Shown here: positions 8,501 through 58,185 of the stretch, in pieces
Numbering within the stretch: the stretch's first letter is position 1
Layout of the letters: each line of letters starts with the position of its first letter
Assembly (NCBI GenBank): GCA_031411135.1
Contig: JANOAN010000013.1
Span: 30,581 to 94,580, forward strand
Direction of reading: 5' to 3'
Length of the DNA: 64,000 nt
DNA from: a bacterium
Lineage (GTDB): Bacteria; Patescibacteriota; Minisyncoccia; Phycocordibacterales; CAIZLB01
The notes under the pieces: generated by a model
What the model saw: the letters and a program-made list of their open reading frames with translations, nothing else
Told to the model about the DNA's origin: nothing
Database searches by the model: none
Translations under genes and position numbers: made by a program

Positions 8501-11500
8501 CAGCAGAGTTCTTAAACTGCATTGTTCCTGCATTGTCTCTGAATCCATATCCGTTTGTTCCAGTGGCAACTGTTCCGAAGTTTAGATACCTAGACAGTCC
8601 CTCGAGCCAGACGTCACCATTTACGTCAAGTTTAGCGGCGGGAGTAGAAGTTCCCAAGCCCAAATTTCCTGATGCAGTCACTGTAACTAATCTTGTATTA
8701 GAAGATGATGATATCGCTAACAAATCTGTTGTTGGAGTACTCGATGTTCCATAAATATCCAATTTTGCAGATGGAGTGGTTGTTCCGATTCCAACAGTTC
8801 CAGTTGAGGATGCAACATAAACTAAATTTTCCAAACTAAGCGCACCGCTAGTATTTTTTAATGGAATATTTGGCAAGTAAAATCCAGTAGAATCAATACT
8901 GACAGTTTTGTTTGGTTGTTGATACGCATAAACCCCACCCGGTGCACCGTTAACATTGTCCATGTATTGAAGTTCCAACCTACTAGACAGTGATGTTGAT
9001 GAAATGTTTGTTATATAGTTATTAAATCTTCCAGTTGTGTGAGTGTTTTGAGCACTATCTTTTGCTCCAAATGCATAGTGTCCCGCAATATTTCCGTTTG
9101 CTGCGGTTGCTTGGTTGTAAAGTACAAAAATACCACCAGTACTGTAATCAATAACTTGCATTCTACCTGAATTAAACATTTCCAATATTAGTCTATTACT
9201 ACTATCTAATGCTGCAATAGTTCTTGATGTTGTATCAGTTGTACTGCCTGTAACGGTAAATCGTCCGTATTCTGTTGGCGAGGCAATTAATTGACTACCT
9301 GCAAAATATGACTTTGCGGCAGATCCATTATAAATTGAATAATTATTCGTTGTACCAGCACCCCCTGTACCACCATTACCTGTTATGTATAAACCGTAGT
9401 TATTAGTTGTACCTGCACCAGAACCAGAACCTAAAAATATCTGCCCACCGAAGTTATTAACTGTTCCCCCAGAACCCGCAGCAGCTGTGTGTCCTCCAAT
9501 TAAATATCCATAGTTATTGATAGTGCCAGATGTTGTACCATTACCATTTGAAAAACCAGCAGATACAAACCCAGAGTAATTCGTAAAAGGCAAAGTGCCG
9601 GACTGAGTAGGTGCTCCTGCATAAAATCCATATCCACTGGAAATCAATCCTGTATAACTTGCTGCGGTGTCTACTCGACTGTATGTTCCAAACACATTTG
9701 ATATAGGAGCGGAACTGTTGGCAATAGTGGGTAAGTTAATTAGACCGAAAACACTACTCACAGAAGCTCCTGTTGGGGTAATTACCGAACCATTATAAAA
9801 ACCATTGATTTGCCCAGTATTCGAAGAACTGACAGTTCCGGAAAGCTTAAGTAGAGCGTCCCCCCCTGATGTTGTGGTTAAAGTTCCACCTACATCAAGT
9901 TTTGAAGTTGGAGCAGAAACACTCAAACCAATGTTTCCGTTGGCTGCTACTGTAAATATTCTGGAATTTGATGAAGAAGATACTGCAAATATATCAGTTG
10001 TTGGAGCAGTGGATGTTCCATATACATCTAACGTGGCAGTTGGAGAGGTTACTCCAATACCAACTAACCCTGCTGTATTAATTGTAAACTTTGTTGAATT
10101 AAAGTTTGCCTGATTTGTAGATATTTTAAATTTACTGGAATCATTTGAATCAAGCCCCATGGACCAGGCTTGATTATTTGTTTTCAAGAAAGTCAGGAAC
10201 GTTCCAAAAGAATTCGCGGCTGAGTTTTCTAAAACAACTTGAGTTTTTGTTGAGGTTGCGATAAATCTAGCAACATCCTGAACACCAATTCCGGCTACAA
10301 CATCTAGATAAAAAGTAGGAGTTGTTGTTCCAATACCGACATTACCAGAACCAGCAGCAATAGCAATCGCGGCCTTCGAATGTGTTCCGTTTATCAAAAT
10401 CGATCTTTCTGATGTTGAATCATCTTGAATACTTGATGACGCTATACCTCCAATAAATCCACCGGTGTTTTGACCCGTAAAACCTAAACCAACCTGAAAT
10501 TGACGGCCGAAAGCATTTGAAATTAAATGTGCTGCTGCGGTGTTTGCATTTCCAAGAGCGTTACTCCAAATAGCGGTTGGTGAATATCCCGTAGTGTTAT
10601 ACGTTGTTGCAAGTGTCCCATAGTTCGCTGCGTCAATTTCGGCCCCAGTATACTTCCCAGTATCATTATCTCTTCTTCCAAGGAAGAAACCTCCAATTCC
10701 CGCACCCGTACCGGAACCAGTAATCCTACCTACTCCATAAACTCCTAACGCATCATTTTCTCCACCACCACCAGGATTTGATGTCGAATCATTTAAACCA
10801 AAACCAGAAACCCCGACAGGTTGAACTTCTGTACCACTTACACCTTTAGCAATACCCACAATGGCTGAATAGGCTTCAACACCATCACCATTAATGCTGT
10901 TTGCAGTTGCAATTGCATCAGTAATAGAAAGAATTCTTTCAACCTTAAGTCCTGGATTTGTATTTTGATCAGGTGAAGCGGTTGTACCTATTCTAATTCC
11001 CAATTCTTGGGCCGTTGTTGTGTTATACATTTGAACAGCATCACCTGTTCCAATTGAAAGTCGTGACCAAGGCGAGGTTGTTGCAAGACCCAACCTTCCA
11101 TTCGCAGTGACTGTAAATATTCTCGCATTTGATGAAGATGAGACTGCGAACAGATCCGTAGTTGGCGCACTTGATGTGCCGTAAATATCGAGTCTTGCAG
11201 ATGCAGAAGAAGTACCAATTCCAAAACTCGATGAAATTGCTGCCGTAGTATTTCCGAGAATAAATTTGTTTGAACCACTTGTAGCTTCTGAATATAATTT
11301 CCAATTTGGCGCACTATTACTGCTATACCAACTAATAGCATTGTTTTTTGCCAACGCTATTGCAGGAGGTGTTGGATCAGTTGAAGTACTGATTGCATCA
11401 GCAGAGATTATAATACCACTGTTAAAAAGTCCTCCATTTGGAGTAATTTGAATAGCAGCAGTAACACTAGTAAATGTTCCAGGTATAGTACTCGTCCCTG

Positions 11501-13211: not shown

Positions 13212-14746
13212 AAGAAGACAAATCTAATCAGGAACAACAGGAACCACAGGGTAATTAAAACTAAAGCCAACTTGGCAACAGGGGGCACGATCGTTGATGC
13301 AAAACTTTTGAGCTTCGAGACAAAACCTTTATCAACAACTTCCCCTTTATTATCAACTGATTTCATAGAAAACAAACCAGTGGCAATAACCGCCTCCTGA
13401 CCACCTAATTCTAGCATCTTTACGTAAAATTTATAGTCACCTTGGTAGGCAAAAGCGGGGACAACTACCCCAAATTTCCTCTCACTGTCGTCTTTATTCA
13501 ATAGATACCCAAATCTTTCATTAAAAATATTTCCATCAACACATAAAACCAATGTCGACCCATCAAATCTAGGATTTTTGTCAAAAGGAATTTCAAGTGT
13601 CATTGGATAACTTGAGTCCAATTGAATATTTGAACCATTTCTATATACAGTTTTTTTATTTTGCAAAAATCTAATATTTGACGCATCCAAATTCAAAGTA
13701 TTTGGGGTCGTCTGAGGATAACCTAAATCATTCTTATTGGTGAATAAATTGTCAGTTATTGAGCAAATATTTGGACGTCCTATATTTTTATTAATAGTAC
13801 CTGTCAAAATTTCACCATCTGAATTAGCTGTAAATATATAAGGTTTTCCATCAACCAATAGTGGATCCTTTGGTTTTGCAGGTACAGAAGTGGTCGCAAT
13901 ATTTGTTGTTGTGTTTTTTGGTTTTTTATAGGTTAATTGCAAAATTGCTGGTCCTGAAAAGTTTCCGCTCTTGTCGCTTGAAAAAAGCGAATAGTAATAC
14001 GTAACACCTTCTCTTACATCCAAATCTGAAACATTTTCCCCTGCTCCCTCATAAATAATTTTTCCTGAAAATTGATCTTTTGGAAAGCTAATGTCAGATC
14101 GAACAAGTTTTACTTTAGAAAAATCCAAATTTTTTGGATTTGTCCATCTTAGAAGAGTAAAGTCAGGTGCCAATGCGTACCTAAATTCAGATGGTGGAGG
14201 TGGCGCATCATTATCAATTGATGCAGTTGTCACAAAATCTCCTTCAAAGTGAAAAACTCTGCTCAAAGTATCAGTTAAAGTTAAGTAATAGTAATAATGC
14301 GTTGATGGTAATAAGTTTTCAACACGAATATTAAATTGTTCATGGTACCAAGATTCTGCCAAAGAGCCTATTTCATATTCTCCTTTATTTCCCCATGATA
14401 ATGTCATGTGGGATGCAAATTTTGTTTTAAAAACGATAACCGCATGGTCTTCTGAAGGTACAACTTCTATTTCGTCCACCAAAAAATCTGCTGTGGTAAA
14501 TGGTGTAGTAGTGGCAGTTGAAGTATTGTTTGTGGAACCTGAACCACTTGGAACAACAGGAGGTGGTGGGCAATCTGCAGCGCAAGTGGCAGTTGTTTCT
14601 CCGATCATGGGTTCACAAACTGTATTAAGATTACAAGACGCAACATTTAAATAAACATTTACTGATCCTGCCAGTGCAACTTTAGACGAAACTAAACCTA
14701 TAAAAATGAGCAAAAATGCGACCTTGCAAAAAAATTTCATGTCCAC
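13208..14746 (-). CDS. type-I membrane protein with signal peptide, Cys-rich module, FN3-like domain and C-terminal TM anchor
   Basis: 512 aa. Signal MDMKFFCKVAFLLIFIGLVSSKVALA. Cys-rich module CNLNTVCEP...CAADCPPPP. FN3-like stretch (PPPSEFRYALAPDFTLLRWTNP...YYYSLFSSD). C-terminal TM LALVLITLWFLLFLIRFVFL. A 4-nt ATGA overlap with the giant gene implies translational coupling. Confidence 0.7.
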   Translation of the reverse strand: MDMKFFCKVAFLLIFIGLVSSKVALAGSVNVYLNVASCNLNTVCEPMIGETTATCAADCPPPPVVPSGSGSTNNTSTATTTPFTTADFLVDEIEVVPSEDHAVIVFKTKFASHMTLSWGNKGEYEIGSLAESWYHEQFNIRVENLLPSTHYYYYLTLTDTLSRVFHFEGDFVTTASIDNDAPPPPSEFRYALAPDFTLLRWTNPKNLDFSKVKLVRSDISFPKDQFSGKIIYEGAGENVSDLDVREGVTYYYSLFSSDKSGNFSGPAILQLTYKKPKNTTTNIATTSVPAKPKDPLLVDGKPYIFTANSDGEILTGTINKNIGRPNICSITDNLFTNKNDLGYPQTTPNTLNLDASNIRFLQNKKTVYRNGSNIQLDSSYPMTLEIPFDKNPRFDGSTLVLCVDGNIFNERFGYLLNKDDSERKFGVVVPAFAYQGDYKFYVKMLELGGQEAVIATGLFSMKSVDNKGEVVDKGFVSKLKSFASTIVPPVAKLALVLITLWFLLFLIRFVFL

Positions 14747-18482: not shown

Positions 18483-19144
18483 CTATTTTATTTCAAGTTC
18501 CGTGCTGGCTTTTTGTCCTGGGCGCTTAATGATTAATTGTGTTTCTGGAATATCAAGTTCCAAATTATCAATAATTTTTTGTGCTACTTCGTCCACATCC
18601 ATAAATTGATCAAAGTTTGCAGGGACGGCTTCGTTAAACAACTCAGTCTTAATACCTCCTGGGTACACTCCGATAATATTTATATGTGAAGGTTTTAATT
18701 CTTCTCTTATCGTGTTAGTAATCCACGCAAAGCGTATTTTGTTGCCACATACATTGCACCACTTGAGCCATTCATACCGTCAAAAGCCGTTGTGGATATT
18801 ATGTTTACAATAGTTCCACTTCCCTGTTTTTTCATTTGACGAACTGCAACGCGGGTGCCATTTATAGTTCCAAATAAATTTATATTGATTAAGTTCCTAG
18901 CTTTTTCCATGTCTAAATTTTCAATCGGCTCTGGCGGGAGCCACACCCCGGCGTTGTTAATCCAGATGTCGATGTGACCGATTTTTTCAGCAAAGGAGGT
19001 TAAGACTTTCTCATCAGTTACATCATAGTTTGCCCTACTGCAGGTGGAGACCTTTGCTCCTTTTGCAATGAGAATTTCAGACATGGCTTTTCCTAGGCCT
19101 TTGGTTCCGCCGGTTATGGCGATGACTTTATTGGAGTGGTTCAT
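18483..19144 (-). pseudogene. short-chain dehydrogenase/reductase (SDR) split by a 1-nt frameshift
   Basis: The N-terminal ORF has TGGTKGLGKA, NNAG and YVATK. The C-terminal continuation (TNTIREELKPSHINIIGVYPGGIKTE) lies in the +1 frame. The shift maps to ggattactaacacg near 18700. Confidence 0.7.
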
Positions 19145-19801: not shown

Positions 19802-20641
19802 TTACATAAACATCTCCCTAAACTCCGCAAACGGCATGCCGTAGTTGAACCCAGGCTTCCTCTCCTGCAGGCGTCCACACTTACTCTTGTCGTATTTTGG
19901 AGTTTTCTGAAGCTGCACGAAACACACCGCGGACCAGCGTCCACTTTTGGCAGTTTCTTCAGTCGCCACTACACGATGACAAAGTGCAGTAAGTTTACCC
20001 TCCGATCTCTGCTGCATCTGCATGGAGTTGATGATGAGCGTCGCATCGCCGGAGAACGTAGCACCCTGCCACTCTTGTGCACCCAAAGACAGCGTCTCAA
20101 ATCCCGGAGCACTTTCAGACAAGTGTAGAGTGAAGCCACTCTGGTCTACATGGGCAGAGGCCGTCTCCTCTCCGGCTTTCCTGTCGCCGAAGTAGTGGAT
20201 GAAGCGCACAAAAAATCCAGCTTCGCTGGCTTCGACTTCGTCGGCAAATCCTGGGATGCCAAATTCTCTTTCAACATCTCGAGCGAAACGCATGATGGTC
20301 GGCTTCATCACTGACACCAGGGAGGTTGCACTCGACACAAACTCGCGCGCGACAGGATCTTCAATTCGCGACAGGTTTTCCTTCAGCCAGTCTTGACCGC
20401 CTACAGCGACATCGAGATTTTCCTTTGAATCACCCTTATTACCAGTTCCGTCTTTGAGCTCGTATCCGACGCCGTCAGAGCCGTTGCTGTATGGGAGGCC
20501 TTTCTTAACATCAGCCGGGAGAGCAGTAAACTTTTGCCAGAGCCTCATTGCATCAGCTACCGCTTGCAGCAAATCTGGTGGATAAGGAATTACTACCGCA
20601 CCTTCAGTTCCAAGTTTTTTTATATCGTATGTTTCAATCAT
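19802..20641 (-). CDS. 2-oxoglutarate/Fe(II)-dependent oxygenase (isopenicillin-N-synthase-like family)
   Basis: HxD in AHVDQSGFTLHL and a distal His/Arg in ALCHRV. GC is ~52% against a ~36% background. Confidence 0.7.
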   Translation of the reverse strand: MIETYDIKKLGTEGAVVIPYPPDLLQAVADAMRLWQKFTALPADVKKGLPYSNGSDGVGYELKDGTGNKGDSKENLDVAVGGQDWLKENLSRIEDPVAREFVSSATSLVSVMKPTIMRFARDVEREFGIPGFADEVEASEAGFFVRFIHYFGDRKAGEETASAHVDQSGFTLHLSESAPGFETLSLGAQEWQGATFSGDATLIINSMQMQQRSEGKLTALCHRVVATEETAKSGRWSAVCFVQLQKTPKYDKSKCGRLQERKPGFNYGMPFAEFREMFM

Positions 20642-23204: not shown

Positions 23205-24098
23205 ATGAGAAACACAACAATAACAACACAGCTACCCGCAATTCAAACACAAATAATCACAATGGTCGAAAAAGCCATCGAGATTATCCGTGCTAACTGC
23301 GGGAACATGCAGGCCCAAGTCAAAGTCAGCTACGCCGGCAATAACGACGACTGCGTCACCATCGCCGACAAACTGGCTCAGGAAATGTATCTGGAGGAAA
23401 TCCGGAAACACTTCCCTACATTCGGCATCATCGCCGAGGAACAGGAGCTGACTATCCCTTGCACGGACAAAAACTTCGATGTTTACTTCACCATCGACCC
23501 ATTGGACGGTACGAAAGCATTCGCGAGAAAGCAATCACACGGCGTCGGCACAATGCTCGCTCTGATCTCTGATGGAAACATCGTTGCAGTTGCAATCGGC
23601 GACGTGAACACTGGCGAAGTTTATACTTACGCCAACGAAAGCGAACACTGCGAGGTGACAAGGCTTCGCTTCGGGGTTAAGTATCAACTTGAGCCAGAGA
23701 AAAAACCTTTGGCCGAGCAATACGCCTTCCTCTTGGACCATCCAAGGGAACAACCAGAGATCGTGCGCAACATGATTCTGCCAGCACCCAAGGACGGAGG
23801 CTTGTTCAAGGACTTCGAAATCGGCAGCGGCAGTATCGGCCTTCGTTTCGCTCGTCTTTGGAAAGGCGAAGTTGGCGGAATCTTCTTGACGCCGACCTTC
23901 GACACGCCATGGGATTTGATGCCGGTTCTTGGCATCACCAAAAAGCTCGGGTTCAAGTTCCTGAAGATAGATGGTAGGGCGCTCGTAGACTTCGAACCAG
24001 AGATGGTCCGCACAGTCACTCGGATGCCACACAACCTCCTAATCATCCACGAAACACACACAACCGAACTACACCAATGGATGCAAAACCAAAAATAG
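23205..24098 (+). CDS. inositol-monophosphatase / 3'(2'),5'-bisphosphate nucleotidase family protein
   Basis: FGIIAEE and DPLDGT motifs. GC ~52%. The true start is possibly at 23262 (MVEKAIEII), where the GC-rich coding begins. Confidence 0.75.
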   Translation: MRNTTITTQLPAIQTQIITMVEKAIEIIRANCGNMQAQVKVSYAGNNDDCVTIADKLAQEMYLEEIRKHFPTFGIIAEEQELTIPCTDKNFDVYFTIDPLDGTKAFARKQSHGVGTMLALISDGNIVAVAIGDVNTGEVYTYANESEHCEVTRLRFGVKYQLEPEKKPLAEQYAFLLDHPREQPEIVRNMILPAPKDGGLFKDFEIGSGSIGLRFARLWKGEVGGIFLTPTFDTPWDLMPVLGITKKLGFKFLKIDGRALVDFEPEMVRTVTRMPHNLLIIHETHTTELHQWMQNQK

Positions 24099-24526
24099 GC
24101 ATTGACCTTGGCATGACCATCGTCAATACTCGAGATGAAACTCGAAGTGCCTTTCCCGACGCCCTCCGCGTCATCAAGCGACTGGTCGAACACTACACAG
24201 TGTTCATCGTCTCGCGAGTAAACCAGGAACAAATGGTACGAGCCAAAGCTTGGCTCCAACGCATGAAGTTCCACGACGAAACCGGCTTACCAGCCGAAAA
24301 CGTCTTCTTCTGCGCCGAGCGCCATGAGAAAGCTCCTATTTGTCAGCGACTGGGCATCACAGCCTTCGTCGACGACCGACCAGAAGTGCTTTCTCACATG
24401 CAGGGTATCGTCCCGTTACGAATCCTCATCGGTGGCGACGAGGAAGATGTCTTGAAGCACCAAGAAAAGAATCTGGATGTAATCCGGGTAGAGACTTGGG
24501 GAGAAATAGAAAAACTACTCCTCTAG
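24077..24526 (+). CDS. HAD-like 5'(3')-deoxyribonucleotidase (NT5C-family-like)
   Basis: IGIDLGMTIV (DxD-type motif I) and AFVDD. GC-rich. 22-nt overlap with the upstream IMPase gene. Confidence 0.55.
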   Translation: MDAKPKIGIDLGMTIVNTRDETRSAFPDALRVIKRLVEHYTVFIVSRVNQEQMVRAKAWLQRMKFHDETGLPAENVFFCAERHEKAPICQRLGITAFVDDRPEVLSHMQGIVPLRILIGGDEEDVLKHQEKNLDVIRVETWGEIEKLLL

Positions 24527-28114: not shown

Positions 28115-29665
28115 TTATTTAATTTCGTCCAATAAAGTATTCAGATCCTTGTGTCTAGCTTCTACTTTTTGTCCGTGAATTAGCCAAAAAACGCTTGGTT
28201 CAAAGGCTTCGATAAATTCGTAATCATGACTTACAAGTAAAATAGTGCTCTTTGAAAGCTGACAAGCTTGAAGTAGAACTTCCCAAGTCACTTCATCAAT
28301 ATGGTTTGTCGGCTCATCGAGAATAATAAGGTCAGGCTTCAACCCAAACACAATTGCAAATCGAAGTCGCATTCTCTCTCCCCCAGAAAGACTCTTTACT
28401 TGCTGATTCATTCGATCAGAGTCAAATTTCATTTTTCCGAGAGCGGTTCGAGCATCCTCGTCTGTTGCATTCAATTTTTCCATAACAATTTCAACCGCAC
28501 GGGACTCCGGATCAAACTGTGCATGTTGATCAAAATAAGCCCATTTTACAGCTGGGCGCCATGTCATTTCACCCTTTGCTAGTGGCAATTCTCCTGTTAA
28601 GCATTTTAAGAAAGTAGACTTACCGGAGTCGTTTCGTCCCAGCAAAACAATTTTTTCACCAGAGCGAATTTCTAGATTTGCATTATTAAAAATCTGCGAT
28701 CTTGCCTTTTTACCTACTTTTTCAAAAGCAAAAGCACCATCATCCATCTTGCAAATTAATTTTCCAGAATGAATGGACTGGTCAGTCCCGACCAATTTTA
28801 TTTTAGTCTTTTTATCATCCGGACGAGCGGATTCTTTGTGAGCTTTTTTCAAACCATCCAATTCTTCTTTTGCTCGACGATATGCAGAAATTTCTTTTCC
28901 ACGAAAAGCTTTCTGCTGTAAAATGACAATTGCTGAAGATAATTGCTTGATACGCTTTGATTCAGCATCATACTGGCGTTGTAATCCTCCAATTCTTTCC
29001 ATCTTCATAGCAATATAATCATCGTACCCTCCTTCTGATATATGGATTTTTCCACCTGCAATTTCGCCGATTTTTGTAGCGATTGCATCAATAAGTAGAC
29101 GATCGTGAGAGATAAAAATAATTCCTCCACGAAAATCCTTCAACAATGAGACAAGTTCAATTCGACTTACGATATCCAAATGGTTTTCAGGTTCATCCAT
29201 CAGAAGAAAATCTGGACTAAGTGCAAACGCTACTGACAATGCAACGATTTTTTGCTGTCCTCCCGAAAGACTTCCGCAAATTGCTTCCTTATTTTTTTCA
29301 ATATTAAAACCCAGTTCATTACCATAATTAAAAACTTTTTGTAAAAATTTATCTCCGGCTAATTCTTTTATGTAACCTTCAATACTCACCTCTTTGTATT
29401 TGTGATCAAATTCCTGAGGAACATACACAAATCTAATATGACCTTGCTTGTCGATAATTCCCGAATCGGCCTCGACCTGGCCACATAAAATTTTTAGCAA
29501 TGTAGACTTTCCTGCACCATTTTCGCCAAAAATACACAACCTCTCGTTTTCACTGCATTTGAAAGAAACGCCTTGTAATATAGGTTTTTCGCGGATTGAG
29601 TATTCGATGTTTTTCAGAGATATGTTTTTTTGCACCGTGAAAAACACTCTAACATATTCCATCAT
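28115..29665 (-). CDS. ABC-F family ATPase (tandem ABC domains, no TMD)
   Basis: Two Walker A motifs (GENGAGKST, GRNDSGKST) and two signature motifs (LSGGQQ, LSGGER) in 516 aa. Confidence 0.8.
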   Translation of the reverse strand: MMEYVRVFFTVQKNISLKNIEYSIREKPILQGVSFKCSENERLCIFGENGAGKSTLLKILCGQVEADSGIIDKQGHIRFVYVPQEFDHKYKEVSIEGYIKELAGDKFLQKVFNYGNELGFNIEKNKEAICGSLSGGQQKIVALSVAFALSPDFLLMDEPENHLDIVSRIELVSLLKDFRGGIIFISHDRLLIDAIATKIGEIAGGKIHISEGGYDDYIAMKMERIGGLQRQYDAESKRIKQLSSAIVILQQKAFRGKEISAYRRAKEELDGLKKAHKESARPDDKKTKIKLVGTDQSIHSGKLICKMDDGAFAFEKVGKKARSQIFNNANLEIRSGEKIVLLGRNDSGKSTFLKCLTGELPLAKGEMTWRPAVKWAYFDQHAQFDPESRAVEIVMEKLNATDEDARTALGKMKFDSDRMNQQVKSLSGGERMRLRFAIVFGLKPDLIILDEPTNHIDEVTWEVLLQACQLSKSTILLVSHDYEFIEAFEPSVFWLIHGQKVEARHKDLNTLLDEIK

Positions 29666-29686
29666 AAAGAGATATAATGATAAAAT

Positions 29687-30832
29687 ATGAAAAAACTTTT
29701 ACTTACTCTATCAATTTTTATTCCATTTGTAACAAACGCTGCATCATTAACAATTAGTACAATCTCACCAAACGCAAATGTACCAGCTGGAACAAATATT
29801 ACGTTTCAAATTACTCCCTCAACTTTAAGCAATCCTCGTTATACCGTTAGCGACGATTCACCAGCAAGCACTCTTTCAAATTCTAATATAAACACACTTG
29901 GAAAATTTGACTGGACACCATCAACTTCTGACATTGGCACTCACAATTTAATAATTACAGGAATTGACACAAATGGAAACAGGGACACCCTAAGTCAAAC
30001 CTTAATTGTGGGAACATCTACCCCACTCTCAATACAAGGACTTTCACCAGGTACAAACATTTTACCAAGTAAAAATTTCTCATTAACCCTAGTTGCATCT
30101 GGATACAACAACCCAACTTTTTCTGTAAGTGATTCATTCTATAATTCAACTGCATCAAGCTATAACATTGACAATTCTGGTGTTTTTTCATGGCAACCCA
30201 CAACAAGAGATATCGGGGTGCACAATTTCGGATTTAGAGTAACAACTTCATCTGGAAGAAATGATGTTGTCTACCAAACTGTTACTGTAAACGGAATTTA
30301 TGTTCCAACAACTTCATACAGCGTAAAAGTTGGTAACCCACTTATAATTAATTTTAATCCTTATGGTTTAACCAACGGAAATTACTACCCATCATATAGA
30401 TACATCGACTCAACTCGAAATAATACAATTGATAACGCAAGTGTTAGTGGAAACACATTTACCTGGACACCACAGACACAAGACGCCGGATCACACACAG
30501 TAACAATCAGTACAACTGACCTGAGTGGAACTTATGTAAGTATAGATTTAAATATACAAGTTACATCAAATCAAAATCCAATTATCAACAACCCGATTCC
30601 AGTTATTACTCCTAGCAAGTTCACATTCACTAAATCTTTAAATACTGGTTCAACTGGGGACGAGGTTAAAGAACTTCAAAAATTGCTAAAAGAAAAAAGT
30701 TTTTATTTGGGACCAATTACAGGAACTTTTGGACCATTAACAAAAGCCGCTGTTAAAAAATTCCAAAAAACTCACAAAATTTCACAGCTTGGAAACGTTG
30801 GACCTGCAACAAGAACGGAGTTGAATAAGTAG
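29687..30832 (+). CDS. secreted protein with three Ig-like repeats and a C-terminal peptidoglycan-binding (PG_binding_1) domain
   Basis: Signal peptide. Repeats F(D/S/T)W(T/Q)P...D(I/A)G.H. The C-terminus TGDEVKELQKLLKEKSFYLGPITGTFGPLTKAAVKKFQ fits PGBD. Confidence 0.7.
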   Translation: MKKLLLTLSIFIPFVTNAASLTISTISPNANVPAGTNITFQITPSTLSNPRYTVSDDSPASTLSNSNINTLGKFDWTPSTSDIGTHNLIITGIDTNGNRDTLSQTLIVGTSTPLSIQGLSPGTNILPSKNFSLTLVASGYNNPTFSVSDSFYNSTASSYNIDNSGVFSWQPTTRDIGVHNFGFRVTTSSGRNDVVYQTVTVNGIYVPTTSYSVKVGNPLIINFNPYGLTNGNYYPSYRYIDSTRNNTIDNASVSGNTFTWTPQTQDAGSHTVTISTTDLSGTYVSIDLNIQVTSNQNPIINNPIPVITPSKFTFTKSLNTGSTGDEVKELQKLLKEKSFYLGPITGTFGPLTKAAVKKFQKTHKISQLGNVGPATRTELNK

Positions 30833-30926
30833 AGACGAAAAAACCGCCCAAAAGAGCGGCTTCTTTTCCATGACCATGAAAGTGGTCCCTGCTTGGTAGA
30901 AACTTACCAGGTGTTGGTATCCTTCT

Positions 30927-31787
30927 TTAAGGATTGATCTCGACGAATTCTTTGTTTGCAAGCAAAACGGCGTCCATATCTGCAGCATGCCCAGAGCAAT
31001 GCGAACGCACATTTGCCACAAAGATTCCATCGCGACACAAGAGACTCAATGCCCCGAGAATGTCGAGAGCCCTGTGCCGCACGATCTGGCGCAACAATGC
31101 CTGCTTGTCGTCGTGCAGCTTCGACCAATTGACCGCATTGAAGTGCGGCCACCAGATCTTGCTGCAAATTTGGGCAATCCGGTAACGGAAGCCGGACACG
31201 CCCAGCGTTTTCGCTTGGCATATTTCCACGAAGAGGGCGCTGTTAGGTAGCGAGAACACTTCCTCGTGACGTCCAATCCCAGGGTAGTCAACCGTGACTT
31301 CGATATTCAACCTTCAGTCGGTCGATGGATGGATTTCAGTGCAAGCGCGAACGCCGTTCCGGTCAAAACGATTGGAATACGTTCCACGAACCGACCTCTG
31401 GACCGTGTAGATCTTCAGCGGACTCACGACCTCTCTGGAATTTGATTTCACAAGCTCCCAAAGACCCTTCGAACAACCGTCATAGGGTGGCCATCCCTCT
31501 CCTTCAATCTGCACGCCAACAAGGCCGGCGTAACGGAGAGCCCCAATGTGTTCGAAAACTTCCAAAGTCTGTCCCATGGTACCAATGAGCCTGATCCGAG
31601 ACCGAGTACATTCGCTAAAACTCGGAATGATCGGTATGGGCCTAATACTCTCACTTGGTAACCATGACCATTCACTGTGTGAAGCTGAATGTAGGGTGAT
31701 CGACTTTTGACCTCCCCAAAACCCTCGGCCGCTATACGTAACTGAATTAGTCAGCCTTAAAGGGCTGAATACGTTCTGACTGCTCAT
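30927..31787 (-). pseudogene. LpxC-like deacetylase gene interrupted by an in-frame TGA (GC-rich, foreign-looking)
   Basis: The N-terminal part matches LpxC (GRGFWGGQKSITLHSA; TLEVFEHIGALRYAGLVGVQIEGEG..PPYDGCSKGLWELV versus TVEHLNAALAGLGIDN..PIMDGSAAPF). The C-terminal part matches IVRHRALDILGAL...SGHAADMDAVLLAN (versus FVRHKMLDAIGDL...SGHALNNKLL). Both parts are in the same frame, separated by TGA at 31314-31316. A strong SD ccaGGAGGtaaaaATG precedes the start. GC ~55%. Confidence 0.65.
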
Positions 31788-31874
31788 TTTTACCTCCTGG
31801 TTAATTTTTATGACAAGCAACTTTTACCTGTCTGCGAGAGATATTACAACACAAACTCAGAAGTGACAATATCC

Positions 31875-32123
31875 TTAGAACCCCGCCACACCCTTCTCCT
31901 TCATGTAACTCGCAACTTGATCCTTATCCGAATCAGCCAAAATAAACCCGTCGATATCTAACGTTGGTGTTTTATCCTGTCCAGATTTTTTTACCAACTC
32001 ATCATAATATTCCTTGTTACTTCTTACTTCCCTTTCTTCATATTTAACATTTTTATCCCGCAACAATGTCAAAACTCCTTCGCACCATGGACAACCTGTT
32101 TTTGTGTATAGAATTATATTCAT
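31875..32123 (-). CDS. glutaredoxin-like protein
   Basis: The CPWC active site lies in a thioredoxin-fold-sized 82-aa protein. Confidence 0.75.
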   Translation of the reverse strand: MNIILYTKTGCPWCEGVLTLLRDKNVKYEEREVRSNKEYYDELVKKSGQDKTPTLDIDGFILADSDKDQVASYMKEKGVAGF

Positions 32124-32497
32124 TACATTTTTCTAGTATGAAGTGCAATCGTGTTTCCTTCACTGTCTGTCAACCATCCGATGTAACCATATTCCCCAAT
32201 ATCCTTTTTCTGAAGAATTGTTTTTCCACCGATTTCATCCGCTTTTTTCAACGTCGCCTCAATATCAGGACATGTAAAGTAAATCACCGGCCCCTTACTT
32301 CCTACATCATATCCAGGACCCTTCATAAGTGCACCTGATGCTCCGTAGGTATCGTCTACCATCGGAAACCAAACCATTTCATATTCCATCATATCTTGTC
32401 TTTTCATAGTAATGCCAAAAAGTGCTTCGTAAAATTTCGTCGCTCTATCGATATCATTAACTGGAATCTCAAACCATCCGATTGGATTTTTCATCAT
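32123..32497 (-). CDS. VOC (glyoxalase/bleomycin-resistance) family protein
   Basis: IGWFEIPVNDIDRATKFYEALFG. Typical VOC N-terminal beta-alpha-beta-beta-beta module. Confidence 0.7.
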   Translation of the reverse strand: MMKNPIGWFEIPVNDIDRATKFYEALFGITMKRQDMMEYEMVWFPMVDDTYGASGALMKGPGYDVGSKGPVIYFTCPDIEATLKKADEIGGKTILQKKDIGEYGYIGWLTDSEGNTIALHTRKM

Positions 32498-32859
32498 GCG
32501 TTTTTAATCTTATGGTAAGACTTGTAAGATAGAACAAGAATTATCATAAACACAACTGGCAATACTAGATTTACACCGAAACCTGCAACTGCCCAGATGC
32601 TAATAAATGCAGCGATGAAATCAAATCCAAATCCAGCGTAAGCCCATTCTTTTATATATGCAGGCACCTTTGGAATAATGAGAGCGAGTGATCCTAGCAC
32701 CTTGAAAGCTGCGAGCATCGGCACGAAGTACAGTGGATATCCTAATCCCACAATTCCATTAATTGACATCTCACTGTTCCAAGTGAATGCCACCATAACC
32801 CCCTCCATTAGAAATATAATACCTGTGGTAATCCAAAATGTAATTTTTGCGTTTTTCAT
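32494..32859 (-). CDS. DoxX-like family membrane protein
   Basis: Four TM helices. A 4-nt overlap with the VOC gene indicates an operon. Confidence 0.55.
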   Translation of the reverse strand: MKNAKITFWITTGIIFLMEGVMVAFTWNSEMSINGIVGLGYPLYFVPMLAAFKVLGSLALIIPKVPAYIKEWAYAGFGFDFIAAFISIWAVAGFGVNLVLPVVFMIILVLSYKSYHKIKNA

Positions 32860-32860
32860 A

Positions 32861-33256
32861 TTACTTAAAATAATTAATTATTGAGACAATAATAACACTA
32901 GACAATCCAGTTAAAATAGTTCCCCAAGCCATATCCACAATCGTTACAATTAAAGGCCAATCCCTCAGTGTTGCCTGATTGGTTAAGTCGTAGGCAGCGT
33001 AAGCTATAAAACCGAGAAGTGCCCCTGCCATAAATACATACAGCAATGACTGTCCTTGTTTTAAGGCTGGTGAAATAACAAAGAAGACCAAACCAAATGC
33101 ATAAAATAAATAAAAACAGATAACTGGTAAAAGTTTAAAATCTTCGGCAAACAATGGTTTTAACCAAGCTTTGTATTTTGCACCCATACTGAAAAGCCAT
33201 GTGCTATCTAGAACAACAAGCACAACGAGACTTATAAAGTAATTTAATATATTCAT
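32861..33256 (-). CDS. hypothetical 4-TM membrane protein (DUF2177-like)
   Basis: 131 aa, hydrophobic. First gene of the DoxX-VOC-Grx operon. Confidence 0.4.
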   Translation of the reverse strand: MNILNYFISLVVLVVLDSTWLFSMGAKYKAWLKPLFAEDFKLLPVICFYLFYAFGLVFFVISPALKQGQSLLYVFMAGALLGFIAYAAYDLTNQATLRDWPLIVTIVDMAWGTILTGLSSVIIVSIINYFK

Positions 33257-33282
33257 ACTTAAAATATTACCATAGCATCTGA

Positions 33283-33314
33283 AAACAAAACACCCCTTCC
33301 GGGGTGTTTTGTAG
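33283..33314 (-). terminator. rho-independent terminator (bidirectional hairpin)
   Basis: aaaacacccc-ttcc-ggggtgtttt. Confidence 0.55.
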
Positions 33315-33331
33315 AACCATCAATTTAAGTT

Positions 33332-33619
33332 TTATGAAAGGTGCTTTGAAACCAACTTTGTCATTTCGAACATGTTTACCATCTTTTTGCCGCCGAATAC
33401 CTTTGTAAGGGCTTCGTCACCATTGATATTTCGCTTGTTCTTAGGATCCTGTAGGTCATGCTTCTTGATGTAAACCCAAAGAGCTTTTACAACCTCTGAT
33501 CGAGGCATAGGTCCTTTACCTACTACAGCTGCTAGCTCTGCGCTCACTGTCATTGGTTTCATAAATGCTGAATTTGCTTTTTTTTCTGCCATAAATTTTT
33601 GATTATTTGTTATGTTATC
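33332..33619 (-). CDS. SWIB/MDM2-domain protein
   Basis: MKPMTVSAELAAVVG..PMPRSEVVKALWVYIKKHDLQDP...INGDEALTKVFG. The start was set at MDNITNN to avoid overlap with the upstream gene; the listed ORF extends to 33697. Confidence 0.7.
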   Translation of the reverse strand, partial: DNITNNQKFMAEKKANSAFMKPMTVSAELAAVVGKGPMPRSEVVKALWVYIKKHDLQDPKNKRNINGDEALTKVFGGKKMVNMFEMTKLVSKHLS

Positions 33620-33648
33620 CATTATACCATAGATTTTGGGGTGTGTAG

Positions 33649-34554
33649 CTACTTTCCCAAGCAAGCCATAAGTGAAGCCGTTTCCGTCCACCCACACTGC
33701 CCACTCACCTGCCTCTCACATTTTGCAGTTTTATAGCAGGCATAGCTTTCGGTATATTCGCAAGTTGAAATAACACCCGGCTTATCACTACAAATTTGAC
33801 TAGAACATCCACCGACGTAGCACTTGCCAGTAGTTATTGGAGTAGATTTTTTTGTAACAGTAAATGTAAATCGATAATCAGATGGTGTAATTGTGGCCGT
33901 AGTTTTTTGAGGAAGAACTTCTGTTAACGTAACGACTACATTTTGTGTAGGAAATGCCTCACCTAAAGTAACAACACTCTCGCTTCCATTCACTAGAATT
34001 TTTACTCTGACCCTTCCTGCCCAAATACAGTTTACATTTGCAGGACATCGGCTGTCTTCTTCGACAGAGAGAGGCTTAATTGAAATTGATCCAAAGTTTT
34101 TTATGTCACCAATTTTTTGTCCACCAACAAATGGAGCAGGAGTCGGTTTAATCTCTGGTGGAGCAGGTTCAATTATTTTAGTAACCGTAAATATCCCCTT
34201 TATGTTGTACTTTACCCACTGATCCGTACTGAGTGCTTCTTTAATAACGACGAAACCCTCAGCTGTTATATGTTTTTGGCTTTGAAATTGCTGCATTGAA
34301 TCCCCCGAGGCACCAAAATTTACAGCGTAGTAAACACCATCATCAGTTTTGAGCCCAAAGGCACATTCCATAGTTTGCGGGCCACTGGTATCGGCATGTG
34401 GTAGACAGGTGTATGTTCCAGAAAGTGTTACATTATACGGAGTTGGGTCAAGAGGTGTTACTAATTCTTCTTTAGAAAAAATATTAAAATACCCCACAAC
34501 ACAAACAGTGATAACTGCCAATCCTAAAATTATGTACAGTTTTTTAGTTTTCAT
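33649..34554 (-). CDS. secreted protein with a Cys-rich C-terminus, unknown function
   Basis: Signal peptide/TM. Eight Cys in the last 55 aa (CYVGGCSSQICSD...CEYTESYACYKTAKCERQVSGQCGW). Confidence 0.5.
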   Translation of the reverse strand: MKTKKLYIILGLAVITVCVVGYFNIFSKEELVTPLDPTPYNVTLSGTYTCLPHADTSGPQTMECAFGLKTDDGVYYAVNFGASGDSMQQFQSQKHITAEGFVVIKEALSTDQWVKYNIKGIFTVTKIIEPAPPEIKPTPAPFVGGQKIGDIKNFGSISIKPLSVEEDSRCPANVNCIWAGRVRVKILVNGSESVVTLGEAFPTQNVVVTLTEVLPQKTTATITPSDYRFTFTVTKKSTPITTGKCYVGGCSSQICSDKPGVISTCEYTESYACYKTAKCERQVSGQCGWTETASLMACLGK

Positions 34555-34584
34555 ATTAGATAAGACGTTTAGAGTCTCTCAAAC

Positions 34585-35169
34585 TTACTTGTGCCCTACT
34601 TTCCTTTTAATAAATACTGTCATGACTAAATTTGTACAAATCATCGCAATTGAATGGAACGTAGTCGCGATGTTGTACGCCCCCAAAGAGAACAGGGTTA
34701 GAATATGTCGTGCAACATTCATTTCATACAAAAGTGGTCTTTCTGTTTCTGGATGAGCCCATGTTTTTCGTAAAGTTGGCATAAACGCCACAATGTCGAT
34801 CAAGACTACAATTACAACTGAAACTGTAGGATCATTAGTTAAAGCCCAAGGTATAAGTCCGACAAGTGCAATCACAAGAAAATAGTGGTCAACTTTACGG
34901 ATATGCCCAGTCTTCCTTTTAAAAATATACTTAAGTGAAAAGAGAAAAATAATTATTGTAAATGCTTCTGCAACACCTGTTGGCAAGGCGCCGATTCCAG
35001 CGCCTTTAGCGAGTCCCCCCAAAAAAGTGGTCATGGAAACAATAGACCAGATGAACCATGTGTATGGGTGTGGGTGCACATGGCCTTTAATCACATCTTT
35101 GAGATACGAGATGTTTCCAATGATTGCAAGAATTGCAGCGATGATGGCGATAGCTTCTTTCATGGGCAC
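34585..35169 (-). CDS. hypothetical polytopic membrane protein
   Basis: 194 aa with about 5 TM helices. Begins 14 nt downstream of tRNA-Gln. Confidence 0.45.
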   Translation of the reverse strand: MPMKEAIAIIAAILAIIGNISYLKDVIKGHVHPHPYTWFIWSIVSMTTFLGGLAKGAGIGALPTGVAEAFTIIIFLFSLKYIFKRKTGHIRKVDHYFLVIALVGLIPWALTNDPTVSVVIVVLIDIVAFMPTLRKTWAHPETERPLLYEMNVARHILTLFSLGAYNIATTFHSIAMICTNLVMTVFIKRKVGHK

Positions 35170-35336: not shown

Positions 35337-35735
35337 ATGTCCAAAAACGAACAAAGTGTAGGTCTAGTTGTCCTAACAGGTGATGAATCCGAAGACATTG
35401 GAGTCCGCGAAGGGATAATCCAAGACATGCGGCTTTGTCACCATAGGGCACACATGACGATCGAGTTCCACAGACCCAAGGCTACGATTCTTATTTTTCG
35501 CTCCAAATTCGACGGTGAATTAGGAACGGAGGCTATGATCGAAGACTTAAGTTCAATCTGCGGAAGCAGGACCCTAAAAAGTCCCGCAAACTACAGAAGT
35601 GAGTACCGCAAGGACATGCCAGCGGAAATTTTCCTTGGCGGACTTACTCACATTTGGACTCCGGTAAACAAGGAGGAGCTCGAAATCGTTCTCGATATAC
35701 TCGGCCTACGAAAAAAAGCTTCTGCTATGTATTGA
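35337..35735 (+). CDS. hypothetical protein (132 aa), foreign-looking
   Basis: It is preceded by TATAAT and a strong SD (aaaGGAGGacaaaaacaATG), which native genes here lack. GC ~47%. It lies adjacent to the tRNA-Gln. Confidence 0.45.
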   Translation: MSKNEQSVGLVVLTGDESEDIGVREGIIQDMRLCHHRAHMTIEFHRPKATILIFRSKFDGELGTEAMIEDLSSICGSRTLKSPANYRSEYRKDMPAEIFLGGLTHIWTPVNKEELEIVLDILGLRKKASAMY

Positions 35736-39709: not shown

Positions 39710-40600
39710 TTACAAACTTTTCTCCGCTTCGATAAACAAGTCTATTCCCCCGTTTAAAACATCATCTACATTACTAGTCTCGGCATCGGTCCGGTGATCT
39801 TTAACCATTTTGTATGGATGCAGAACATACGAGCGAATTTGATTTCCCCATTCTATATCAGTGGTCTTGCTGATATACATTCCCTTTTCAGTCGCCATAC
39901 GCTCTTTTTCTTTTTGCGCATAAATTTTCCCACGTAAAATATCCATGGCTTTTTCTTTGTTCTGACCTTGAGAACGTTCCGTTGTTATATGAACAGATAA
40001 CTTCGTTGGAAGATGCACAATACGAACTGCAGTTTCTCTTTTGTTAACATTTTGCCCTCCTGGTCCTCCAGCCCTCGCATAAGTGATTTCCAATTCATCC
40101 TCTGGAATCTCAATATCCTGATTTTTTTCAAATTTTGGAATAACTTCTACCATTGAAAAAGAGGTGTGTCTTAACTGTTTGGCATTAAAAGGAGAAATTC
40201 GGACAAGTCGGTGCACACCGGATTCGTTCTTTAAAGTCCCGTAAACATTTTTTCCTTCAATTTCAAAAGTAATATTTCTGTACCCCCCATGATCATTTTG
40301 GTTTTCATGCAATATAAAAGCTTTCCAATTTTTCTTTTGGATATATTTTGAATACATATTAAAAAGCATAGATGAAAAATCTTCAGAATCGTCTCCCCCC
40401 GCACCTGAGAAGATTGTAACAACAGCTCCTAGATTGTCATACTTTCCCCCACCCTCCATTTCAATTTTTAAATCCTGCATCTCCTTTATCATCTCCTGAG
40501 CCTTAGCTGGATTCTGCCAAAAATCAACAGCGTTCATAGCTTCCTCAATCTGAGTAATTCTTGAGCTTATCTTCATCTTTTTTTCATCTCCAGGTGTCAT
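39710..40600 (-). CDS. prfB: peptide chain release factor 2 (short N-terminus, no programmed frameshift detected)
   Basis: GGQNVNK motif plus the RF2-specific SPF tripeptide (RISPFNA). Confidence 0.85.
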   Translation of the reverse strand: MTPGDEKKMKISSRITQIEEAMNAVDFWQNPAKAQEMIKEMQDLKIEMEGGGKYDNLGAVVTIFSGAGGDDSEDFSSMLFNMYSKYIQKKNWKAFILHENQNDHGGYRNITFEIEGKNVYGTLKNESGVHRLVRISPFNAKQLRHTSFSMVEVIPKFEKNQDIEIPEDELEITYARAGGPGGQNVNKRETAVRIVHLPTKLSVHITTERSQGQNKEKAMDILRGKIYAQKEKERMATEKGMYISKTTDIEWGNQIRSYVLHPYKMVKDHRTDAETSNVDDVLNGGIDLFIEAEKSL

Positions 40601-47391: not shown

Positions 47392-48210
47392 CTACGGTGA
47401 TAATTTTTGCAAGTGATTAAAAATAACTTTGCCTTCCAAATGTTTTTCGGCTTCTAAGACTATTCTTTCCATAATTACGACAGACTCGACTGGGTAATTT
47501 CCACTAGCAGTTTCCTCTGAGAGCATGACACAATCTGCCCCCTCAAGGATTGCTTCCGCGACGTCAGTTACTTCGGCACGCGTTGGTTCTTGGTTTTTTG
47601 TCATTGAAAGCATCATCTGCGTTGCAACAATTACCGGCTTACCAGCCTTTTTACATTTAGAAATGATGTCGGATTGCACGAACGGTATTTTTTCAATTGG
47701 AATATTATTACCCAAATCACCACGAGCAACCATGACAGCATCCGCTTCTGAAATAATTTTATCCAAGTTTTCCAGTGCGATTGCTCTCTCAATTTTTGCA
47801 ATTACTTTTTGCTTTCCACTATTCTCTTTTATTGTTTCTCGGCACTTTATAATATCTTTTTCTGATGCAACAAATGAAACCGCAATATAGTCCACTGCAT
47901 GTTGTACTCCAAACTTAATCAATTCGATGTCGTGATCGGTTATGGCACTCTCTGAATCATAATTGTATGTATGACCGTTTTCATTTTGAATACGTGGTCC
48001 GGGTAAATCTTGAATTATCGGTAGTAAAATCCCTCTTTCTTTTTCAATCTTTCGAATATTTAAAATATGTTCGGCGTGATTTTCTAATGTGTTCCATGAA
48101 AAATTTAATCTAATTACACCTAACTGTTTTTCACACATCAAATTAATAACTTCATACGAAAAAGAACTTGGGCCAAGGGTTGCGATGATTTGTGCTTTTG
48201 AGGTTGGCAT
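47392..48210 (-). CDS. pyk: pyruvate kinase, short form (barrel domain only, 272 aa)
   Basis: MVARGDLG and TQMMLSM motifs. The C-terminal regulatory domain is missing. Confidence 0.7.
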   Translation of the reverse strand: MPTSKAQIIATLGPSSFSYEVINLMCEKQLGVIRLNFSWNTLENHAEHILNIRKIEKERGILLPIIQDLPGPRIQNENGHTYNYDSESAITDHDIELIKFGVQHAVDYIAVSFVASEKDIIKCRETIKENSGKQKVIAKIERAIALENLDKIISEADAVMVARGDLGNNIPIEKIPFVQSDIISKCKKAGKPVIVATQMMLSMTKNQEPTRAEVTDVAEAILEGADCVMLSEETASGNYPVESVVIMERIVLEAEKHLEGKVIFNHLQKLSP

Positions 48211-58000: not shown

Positions 58001-58185
58001 TCCATCTCTAAAACATACAAATCCAGCGACTCACAAAAACCCAAGATTTTTGCTTTTGTAATCTCTTTATACCTATCTTTTTTGATTAGAATATCCTCTT
58101 CCTTCTCTACAAAATCTTCTGGTAGGAAGTCCTTTGCGAAGTGAAGAAAATGTTCAGATTGATACTTTTCATTAAATTTCATCAT
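55072..58185 (-). CDS. gamma-class N6-adenine DNA methyltransferase, large (1037 aa), PglX/DrmMI/Eco57I-like
   Basis: Motif X GSFYTP, motif I LDPACGSGAY, motif IV VIGNPPYV, in gamma order. Long helical N-terminal domain and a ~350-aa C-terminal TRD-like region. Confidence 0.85.
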   Translation of the reverse strand: MMKFNEKYQSEHFLHFAKDFLPEDFVEKEEDILIKKDRYKEITKAKILGFCESLDLYVLEMDHERENDPRIAIATDAFKILADHWIHRALVVFKNQSDNYRLSYLTISLDLNEKNKAVRKYSNARRYSFYLGVNAKVNTPQQQLIKKGKVKNSEDLLSRFSVEVVNKQFYLEVAKYFDELISKQANYLSLPGVSQEDQNIRKSFAVRLIGRIMFCWFLKQKKSVAGQLIPDELLSSMVVHSNYYHEILEPLFFGVLNTSIDSRDIRNDLFDKVPYLNGGLFNPQLDDYYELDRGTFASKYINTLKVNDVWFRDFFGLLETYNFTIDENTAFDQELSVDPEMLGRIFENLLAEINPETGGSERKRTGSFYTPRQIVEYMVDQSLIEYLKIKTDIDINKISALVSYDLNDDVEYPLTDSEKQKIVDAIESLRLLDPACGSGAYPIGALQKIVFILKSIDPDCKLWLNHKLKGVPELYKQKIINEVHSNPFDYTRKLDVIKNSIFGVDIQPIAVDVSRLRCFLTLVVESEIYDDKPNRGIEPLPNLDFKFVCANTLIGLPRSEKISMFDDHSGIVELSEIMSDYFSCNSHRKNEMKLKFTNAQKSILNKALSAFGSNIGELTQKLTLWDPFSNHSNSWFDPEWMFGMEEKFDVVIGNPPYVDSETMVRDDPALREFYTSQYKCASGNWDLFVVFIEQGIKFLSNYGNLSYIVPNKLIAAKYSESIRSYMQTKNIKYIRDYSDVNVFKEASVYPIVFQVSNSINVGSSVILTKMKDIEQYDLINTVPHSLFYADIYWDRYFIKPQELEVIVKISKNPPLEKVNNLVLGAATVNEAYQLKEIIKEVNTDDDKFKKLINSGTIDPYVSLWGNKRTQYIKDSYDKPIALDEKLIELLPNRFKQSSGRKLIIAGMSKRLEVFYDNGEYIAGKSTTIILDNDKIDLLYLLGILNSKLISWWYKTYFSSLSLAGGYLRINSNEIKKIPIVVANENKQKYIIDIVKKIIELKQSDSNDAKDLELEIDEVVMDLYELNHEEKDIIRKFN

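Follow-up and report, generated by a model that had tools for sequence, protein, structure and literature searches.

We analysed a 64,000 nt stretch of the patescibacterial assembly GCA_031411135.1 (contig JANOAN010000013.1, positions 30,581 to 94,580 of the forward strand), hereafter the window, which carries a gene resembling that for the deacetylase LpxC whose reading frame is broken by a single in-frame TGA. The explanation that we favour, and hold to be probable though far from assured, is that of a very young pseudogene: an accessory, horizontally acquired gene for an LpxC-fold deacetylase, inactivated by a single nonsense mutation in a host where UGA is a stop codon. It has its observed basis in the fold, the conservation of the catalytic core, the TGA within the frame, the use of UGA as a stop, the foreign composition of the gene and its absence from this site in the nearest relative. 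In the sequence of events that we propose, a single-gene cassette with its own Shine-Dalgarno (SD) sequence and terminator would have entered a low-GC (guanine plus cytosine), largely SD-less, Paceibacteria-like genome by horizontal transfer, and a glycine codon in a loop would then have changed from GGA to TGA by one G-to-T change. Termination at UGA in the host would leave a 157 aa fragment as the main product, and this fragment, which has only one of the three zinc ligands and no catalytic histidine, would be an inactive enzyme.

Structure of the interrupted gene

The LpxC-like frame lies on the minus strand, with its ATG at 31787-31785 and its terminal TAA at 30929-30927; the frame opens short of ~31860, where the interval given in the initial annotation of this DNA ends. 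The single in-frame TGA that it reported was borne out, the same frame being open on both sides. The elements of the gene are as follows.

30927..31787, minus strand: complete interrupted LpxC-like reading frame by translation, with 286 sense positions (the TGA counted as one) and a closing TAA
31317..31787, minus strand: N-terminal open reading frame (ORF) of 157 aa; public data annotate only this part as a gene (P0001)
31314..31316, minus strand: in-frame TGA, codon 158, after 157 codons
30927..31313, minus strand: in-frame continuation of 128 codons plus TAA, with the H-R-x-x-D zinc motif, Gly266-His267 and Asp270

The interruption divides the active site. Glu79 and His80 are encoded in the N-terminal ORF, and His238, Asp242 and His267 are all missing from it; the 157 aa product would therefore have no activity on its own, and the gene as it stands would appear to have lost its function.

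Fold, family and catalytic residues

The merged 286 aa protein matched the Pfam LpxC family (PF03331) with 49.2 bits (cut-off 27) in one stretch, residues 12-271, that spans the TGA. It did not pass the LpxC equivalog model TIGR00325 (23.6 bits, cut-off 187.25), and a single-sequence phmmer search of the merged protein against the PDB found no LpxC. An AlphaFold2 (AF2) model built on the family alignment (pLDDT 95.5, pTM 0.93) predicts the two-domain beta-alpha-alpha-beta fold of LpxC, and the top 50 Foldseek matches in the PDB were all LpxC, with template-modelling (TM) scores of 0.73-0.79, probability 1.0 and 16-19 % identity. The claim that the protein is clearly homologous to LpxC therefore stands for fold and superfamily and fails for orthology.

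An exhaustive profile search of 1.84 billion representatives returned 354 clusters at 50 % identity with E<=1e-3, 115 of them at E<=1e-30, nearly all full-length at 265-295 aa (roughly 275 aa). By sequence, these LpxC-like proteins form a discrete family, distinct from the canonical LpxCs, which number tens of thousands; a profile built from 91 members of the family matched Aquifex LpxC over the whole length (E 1e-16). Every member with a nameable source organism came from Patescibacteria, the named ones being MBZ9577595.1 (Patescibacteria group bacterium), AMJ47_00055 (Parcubacteria bacterium DG_72) and a protein of a Candidatus Saccharibacteria metagenome-assembled genome (MAG). We defined the patescibacterial LpxC-like clade operationally by alignment A2, and the window copy has all four of its motifs (E-H, W-P-P, H-R-x-x-D-x-L-G and S-G-H-x-x-D). 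The previously described motifs VFEHIGAL and IVRHRALDILGAL are both present in the merged protein; the supposed SGH..N reads SGHAAD, with no Asn.

Mapping of E. coli LpxC numbering through the family hidden Markov model (HMM) alignment placed the catalytic zinc site of that enzyme (Glu78, His79, His238, Asp242 and His265) at Glu79, His80, His238, Asp242 and His267 of the window copy, five residues that are invariant or kept in at least 88 of 90 family members. Glu79 and His80 were invariant in 90 homologues, whilst His238, Arg239, Asp242, His267 and Asp270 were conserved in at least 87 of the 90; an invariant Asp three residues after the catalytic His is a novelty of the family. The positions of Asp246, Lys239, Lys143, Lys262 and Asp197, which we take to be second-shell and UDP-diphosphate contacts of LpxC, have changed. 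Lys239 is Arg in 87 of the 90 members, including the window copy (Arg239); Asp246 and Lys262 are Ala and Cys, respectively, in 60 of 90, with Ala246 and Cys264 in the window copy; Asp197 is Trp in the family consensus and Phe200 here; and the Lys143 position is variable, with Ala148 here. Compared with LpxC as represented by PF03331, TIGR00325 and PDB entries 4MDT and 1P42, the window copy thus shares the two-domain fold, a similar length, the zinc ligands His79, His238 and Asp242, the general base Glu78, His265 and Thr191, but is only 16-19 % identical, is missed by TIGR00325, has several substrate-contact residues replaced and is interrupted by a stop.

This pattern suggests that the zinc-hydrolase chemistry of LpxC has been kept and that the substrate pocket differs. 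The locus is one gene for a divergent, zinc-dependent amidohydrolase of the LpxC fold, probably an N-deacetylase, and its substrate would be something other than lipid A; the database name 'UDP-3-O-acyl-N-acetylglucosamine deacetylase' is probably an over-annotation for this family. No other lipid-A genes (lpxA, lpxD, lpxB and the like) were found among the ~55 ORFs of the 64 kb window that were scanned with Pfam, and Patescibacteria are generally regarded as lacking lipid A. The initial annotation had singled out an LpxC-like enzyme in an organism apparently without lipopolysaccharide, which was a fair point, although the case is not unique given a whole Patescibacteria-associated family. In the literature searched we found nothing on LpxC-like proteins in Patescibacteria or Saccharibacteria, and no experimentally characterized member of the clade.

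Eight sampled family loci lay on contigs of 34-46 % GC with small genes and mutually unrelated neighbourhoods (for example L27/L9, RNR/glyoxalase, Fmt/Mur ligase and a copper ATPase), and none of the eight displayed an operon hinting at a pathway. The window copy is likewise a stand-alone gene, and it shares the clade, the signature E-H, H-R-x-x-D and G-H-x-x-D and the length of 265-295 aa with patescibacterial proteins named LpxC or hypothetical, such as MBZ9577595.1 and AMJ47_00055. It differs from them in the in-frame TGA, the strong SD and a GC content far above that of its host, a comparable excess being seen, among the sampled members, only in the contig L011 (56.5 % versus 39.6 %) and a smaller one in L012 (52 % versus 46 %).

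Decoding of UGA in the host

The host reads UGA as a stop codon. Stops were tallied for 57 long, non-overlapping ORFs of the window: 33 end in TAA, 16 in TAG and 8 in TGA, the last including gltX and a 1,096 aa helicase. The window also encodes the release factor for UGA.

39710-40600, minus strand: release factor RF2 (prfB model 346 bits versus prfA 222 bits), with the SPF tripeptide and GGQ

This RF2 is 296 aa long and N-terminally short, with nothing to indicate the programmed +1 frameshift site that such genes usually have. The initial annotation had proposed a check for other TGA-interrupted genes. Across the window, one further pair of open segments (at least 90 codons) was bridged by a TGA; it runs antisense to a GC-rich gene and appears spurious, which by our reading of the sequence leaves the LpxC-like gene as the sole genuine TGA-bridged gene. 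An RF2 with SPF, TGA terminators and the lack of another bridged gene together indicate that UGA is a stop and lend no support to recoding. Host-wide reassignment of UGA (code 4 or 25) was rejected on the presence of RF2, the 8 of 57 ORFs ending in TGA and the single bridged gene. ARAGORN detected only tRNA-Gln(CUG) and tRNA-Thr(GGU) in the window, and no tRNA-UCA.

The locus resembles code 25 and selenocysteine systems in having an in-frame UGA where relatives have Gly, but differs from them in the RF2 and UGA termination, the lack of a selenocysteine insertion sequence (SECIS) and the single occurrence. That the UGA encodes selenocysteine, making the gene a selenoprotein, has the in-frame UGA as its sole support and is effectively refuted. 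The 91 nt that begin with the UGA fold no better than shuffled sequences (z = +0.85) and contain no SECIS-like hairpin, a search of 30700-32000 gave no Rfam family even at E<=1, and the stop is not at an active-site position; the homologous residues form a variable loop (Pro, Gly, Lys, Glu or Arg) with no conserved Cys anywhere in that column of the family alignment.

As to the host itself, the ABC-F protein of the window shares 58-69 % identity with proteins assigned by name to Candidatus Pacebacteria, Paceibacterota and Taylorbacteria, and the gene order release factor-ftsE-ftsX-tRNA-Gln is common to the window and the Patescibacteria MAG GCA_020148045.1. Both results place the host in Patescibacteria, with the Paceibacteria/Parcubacteria type as its closest description.

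Origin of the stop codon and state of the gene

In the AF2 model, predicted strands 149-153 and 160-168 are joined by a surface loop of variable sequence, which is where the stop is located. In the HMM-guided alignment the stop is opposite F153 of K-P-Y-N-G-F in E. coli LpxC, in agreement with its earlier placement in the PYNGF region. Family residues aligned at this position are Pro (28), Gly (17), Lys (12), Glu (8) and Arg (7). Nearest to the window copy are P0002 and P0003 (45 % identical), which carry Asp-Gly-Arg there with the Gly encoded by GGA, and the window copy reads GAC-TGA-AGG. One G-to-T transversion therefore suffices to create the stop, and the homologues suggest GGA to TGA as the direction of the mutation.

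A glycine at exactly this position in the nearest homologues would also suit a different history, in which the TGA is a fossil glycine codon from a donor using code 25 (UGA = Gly; Gracilibacteria/Absconditabacteria) and the gene became unreadable on arrival in a code-11 host. Code 25 occurs within the Patescibacteria radiation, and the family is associated with Patescibacteria. We nevertheless find this history distinctly improbable. The gene has one TGA against 22 standard Gly codons; it is GC-rich (51 % GC, 57 % third-position GC [GC3]), which is atypical of code-25 lineages, as these are low in GC; and GGA, CGA, AGA, TGG, TGY, TCA and TTA all lie one step from TGA, making the glycine weak evidence. 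The eight family-bearing genomes displayed no code-25 signature and TGA ends ORFs in seven of them, the exception being L008, where there are only two long ORFs. Opening TGA raised ORF coverage only slightly in these genomes, save on the short contigs L002, L007 and L008, where the rise was 8-13 points.

Another possibility is that the interruption is tolerated and the gene still under selection, either by low-level readthrough of UGA with a near-cognate tRNA or by re-initiation at a TTG, which would yield two pieces able to reassociate. All 128 codons past the stop are open and every catalytic residue is kept, the loop between two beta strands would be a lenient place for a break, and a TTG stands at 31310, two codons past the TGA (UGA-AGG-UUG) and 3 nt after the stop, in a host whose mostly SD-less initiation makes re-initiation near a stop mechanistically plausible. 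Equally, an open downstream frame is what a very recent nonsense mutation in sequence of 52 % GC would leave. RF2 is present, the RNA downstream has neither a stimulatory structure nor an Rfam match, and none of the other family members examined has a break here: P0149, P0117, P0088 and P0086, which are short representatives, neither begin nor end at the site. The initial annotation had listed recoding or readthrough among its options; recoding is unsupported in view of the SPF-bearing RF2, the TGA terminators, the unstructured RNA and homologues that offer no Cys or Trp. We consider a tolerated interruption unlikely overall, and slightly more likely than a fossil glycine codon.

Apart from the stop, the gene looks intact. 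Scored with a family HMM from which it had been left out, the merged protein reached 307.1 bits, compared with 171-350 (median 291) for 90 intact members scored by leave-one-out. It is off consensus at two of the 24 columns conserved at 90 % or more, where prolines that are ~93 % conserved in the patescibacterial members are replaced (Pro34Ser and Pro198Ser); 21 % of intact members deviate at two or more of the same columns. The earlier proposal of a recently acquired and already decaying pseudogene thus remains the best fit in its essentials, except that the stop is the only lesion and the decay is not borne out.

A second disrupted gene lies elsewhere in the window.

18483-19144, minus strand: short-chain dehydrogenase (SDR) gene frameshifted by a 1 nt deletion near 18722 relative to an intact 225 aa orthologue in the relative L019

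The deletion site reads CGTGG-ATTAC in the window and CGCGGTCTCAC in L019, and reflects either real decay or an assembly indel. Gene inactivation, or assembly error, is therefore not unique to the LpxC-like locus.

Composition and flanks of the gene

The LpxC-like ORF has 51.4 % GC and a GC3 of 56.9 %, with 300 nt windows up to 54 %, in a window that otherwise averages 38.1 % GC. The contrast with low-GC surroundings drawn by the initial annotation was therefore sound, its figure of ~55 % for 30860-31860 being slightly high. GC3 is roughly 24-40 % in most neighbouring native genes. The GC-rich stretch coincides with the ORF, with the SD at its upstream edge.

30930..31800: single-gene GC-rich island, 50-62 % GC in 50 nt windows, with flanks of 30-38 % GC
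31793..31798, minus strand: SD AGGAGG, read from the sequence, with a 5 nt spacer to the ATG
31841..31869, minus strand: resemblance to a sigma-70 promoter (TTGTCA-17-TAATAT), in the low-GC spacer that separates the LpxC-like gene from that for glutaredoxin; a match to the consensus and no more (3 found versus 1.8 expected)
30838..30859, both strands: hairpin CCGCTC-TTTT-GGGCGG followed by T6 on the minus strand, the plus side also being T-rich; read from the sequence and overlapping a scan site
29687-30832, plus strand: PG_binding_1 surface protein, neighbour of the LpxC-like gene
31875-32123, minus strand: glutaredoxin, the other neighbour

The hairpin, which stands where the LpxC-like and PG_binding genes converge, is likely a terminator for both directions; it lies ~70 nt past the stop of the LpxC-like gene in a spacer of 48 % GC. 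No notable direct or inverted repeats, as would be signatures of a mobile element, flank the gene. The strong GGAGG previously pointed out is indeed there, as AGGAGG at 31798-31793, in a genome that is SD-poor as described: a 4 nt SD core or better precedes only 5 of the 57 long ORFs. Both neighbours were likewise correctly named at the outset. Native genes mostly lack an SD and have a TATAAT-like -10 box ~5-15 nt before the start codon (examples are the ORFs at 5566, 14746, 19144, 29687, 38987 and 48865), which suggests that leaderless or very short-leader mRNAs may predominate in this organism.

Evidence for horizontal acquisition

Only the sequences L019, L020 and L021 were informative for a comparison of the orthologous site. 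They represent the nearest relative available, with an ABC-F ~90 % and a SWIB protein 93 % identical to those of the window. Their interval from SWIB to PG_binding holds one 209 aa ORF and no LpxC-like gene, whereas that of the window holds DUF2177-DoxX-glyoxalase-glutaredoxin-LpxC-like. The contig of another relative, L022 (ABC-F 97 % identical), extends in the wrong direction for this comparison, and L018, whose PyrG falls in the same 90 % cluster, loses synteny with the window directly after pyrG. In a distance tree the window copy was placed beside Saccharibacteria-type sequences and apart from the copies of syntenic relatives, a placement that is weak evidence as the family is star-like at 35-45 % identity. 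Foreign GC3, a strong SD, absence from this site in the nearest relative and the tree together favour horizontal acquisition, and the LpxC-like gene would be an accessory gene in this genome.

The segment downstream of pyrG varies in this lineage, as the divergence of L018 indicates. L018 (11700-21656 of a 789,885 bp contig of JGI 3300051785) is syntenic with the window up to pyrG, and past it carries an antitoxin, an integrase (rve), an SNF2 helicase, SduA_C and a methylase.

The initial annotation had suggested identifying a donor lineage by a homology search with the merged protein. None was identified, the best match being 45 % identical: a word-indexed search of 5.8 billion proteins returned only the gene's own N-terminal half and two 45 %-identical proteins. 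JGI metagenome contigs gave no match to the A1 patterns of the LpxC-like family or to the neighbouring glyoxalase. Viral contigs gave no match for the LpxC-like gene, and hence no sign of carriage by phage.

A further copy of the gene bears on its history. L011 (a Logan SRR19053155 contig) comes from a more distant relative, with TspO 71 % and glyoxalase 58 % identical to the window proteins, and has an intact LpxC-like gene (6068-6916) that forms a sharply bounded, single-ORF GC-rich island. This copy is ~40 % identical to that of the window, has 56.5 % GC and a GC3 of 61.5 % in flanks of 39.6 % GC, and is found two genes downstream of the orthologous glyoxalase. The likeness may reflect an insertion hotspot or an old resident that has stayed GC-rich.

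The window holds other GC-rich islands (46-51 % GC versus 38 % for the genome) that code for intact genes.

19802-20641, minus strand: 2OG-Fe(II) oxygenase in a GC-rich island, with a syntenic orthologue in L019
23205-24098, plus strand: inositol-monophosphatase-family (IMPase) protein in a GC-rich island, by Pfam
24077-24526, plus strand: HAD/NT5C-like protein in a GC-rich island, by Pfam
35337-35735, plus strand: 132 aa ORF in a GC-rich island, no Pfam match, with an AGGAGG SD

The oxygenase gene has 51 % GC in the window and 45 % in its L019 orthologue. The IMPase-HAD block (23205-24526) is absent from L019.

Assembly support and points against recent acquisition and loss

An abrupt switch of composition at both ends of a 0.9 kb patch might arise if foreign reads had been spliced into the contig. 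Such a chimera, an option raised by the initial annotation, is very unlikely indeed. The Logan contig SRR20217193_245832 (14,264 bp) matches window positions 28314-34787 exactly over 6,474 bases, including the TGA and both junctions, and so a second assembler reproduces the joins. The patch corresponds to exactly one ORF with its SD and terminator; at least two more such islands in the window encode intact genes, and one of these is syntenic in L019; with three GC-rich islands in 12 kb, six chimeric joins would be needed; and L011, from a different sample and organism, has the same single-gene LpxC-like island.

Alternatively, only the TGA may be wrong: a base-call or consensus error, or a minority variant that the assembler took up, would then conceal GGA or another sense codon in a gene for an intact, functional enzyme. 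The gene is otherwise like intact members, a single base separates TGA from the GGA of its nearest homologues, and the 1 nt deletion in the SDR gene could point to an error-prone assembly. Against this, the NCBI and Logan contigs agree base for base over 6.5 kb, the TGA is in neither a homopolymer nor a low-complexity context, and a 14 kb Logan contig implies accurate reads. We rate this alternative as rather unlikely.

Several observations weigh against the young pseudogene that we favour. The Logan run and the NCBI assembly (a 238,646 bp contig) may derive from the same data. No decay is detectable besides the stop, the HMM score and the conserved-column deviations being within the range of intact members, and in sequence the gene would look no different if the TGA were a base-call error or a minority variant, or if leakiness were tolerated. 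The exhaustive HMM search of the 1.84 billion representatives found the family and no candidate donor closer than 45 % identity. Given L011, the gene could be an older resident, so that recent acquisition may be too simple a description, and the oxygenase island, being syntenic in L019, indicates that GC-rich islands can persist, which complicates the case for a recent arrival.

Other features of the window

A LOOT RNA (Rfam RF03000) was identified at 62637-62761 (minus strand) with 91.6 bits over the full model; a literature search on the LOOT motif found nothing. A 2,540 aa ORF at 5589-13211 (minus strand) had no Pfam match at E<=1e-4, nor did the adjacent 512 aa ORF at 13208-14746. A defence or restriction pair occupies 55072-61472 (minus strand), both genes having 33-37 % GC. 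One encodes the 1,096 aa protein with PLD-like, SNF2 and helicase-C domains, and its partner a 1,037 aa Eco57I-type N6 methylase with a TaqI-like specificity domain, whose start overlaps the end of the former gene by 4 nt. A pyruvate-kinase-like ORF of 272 aa at 47392-48210 (minus strand) matched the barrel domain only, in two stretches, and may be a truncated or reduced form of the enzyme.

Implications for the family and its hosts

The stop codon itself is ordinary, a single nonsense mutation in an accessory gene. If the TGA is instead a fossil glycine codon, it would directly record a horizontal transfer from one genetic code into another, with the gene dead on arrival. The locus would illustrate how small Patescibacteria genomes gain single GC-rich genes and then lose them quickly. 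Of wider interest is the family to which it belongs: LpxC-fold zinc hydrolases that keep the catalytic core, have changed contacts and occur in hosts not thought to make lipid A. Their substrate may be an N-acetyl sugar linked to a lipid or a nucleotide, a precursor of the cell wall or a molecule derived from the host, and its identification would enrich the sparse picture of how epibiotic Patescibacteria build their envelopes.

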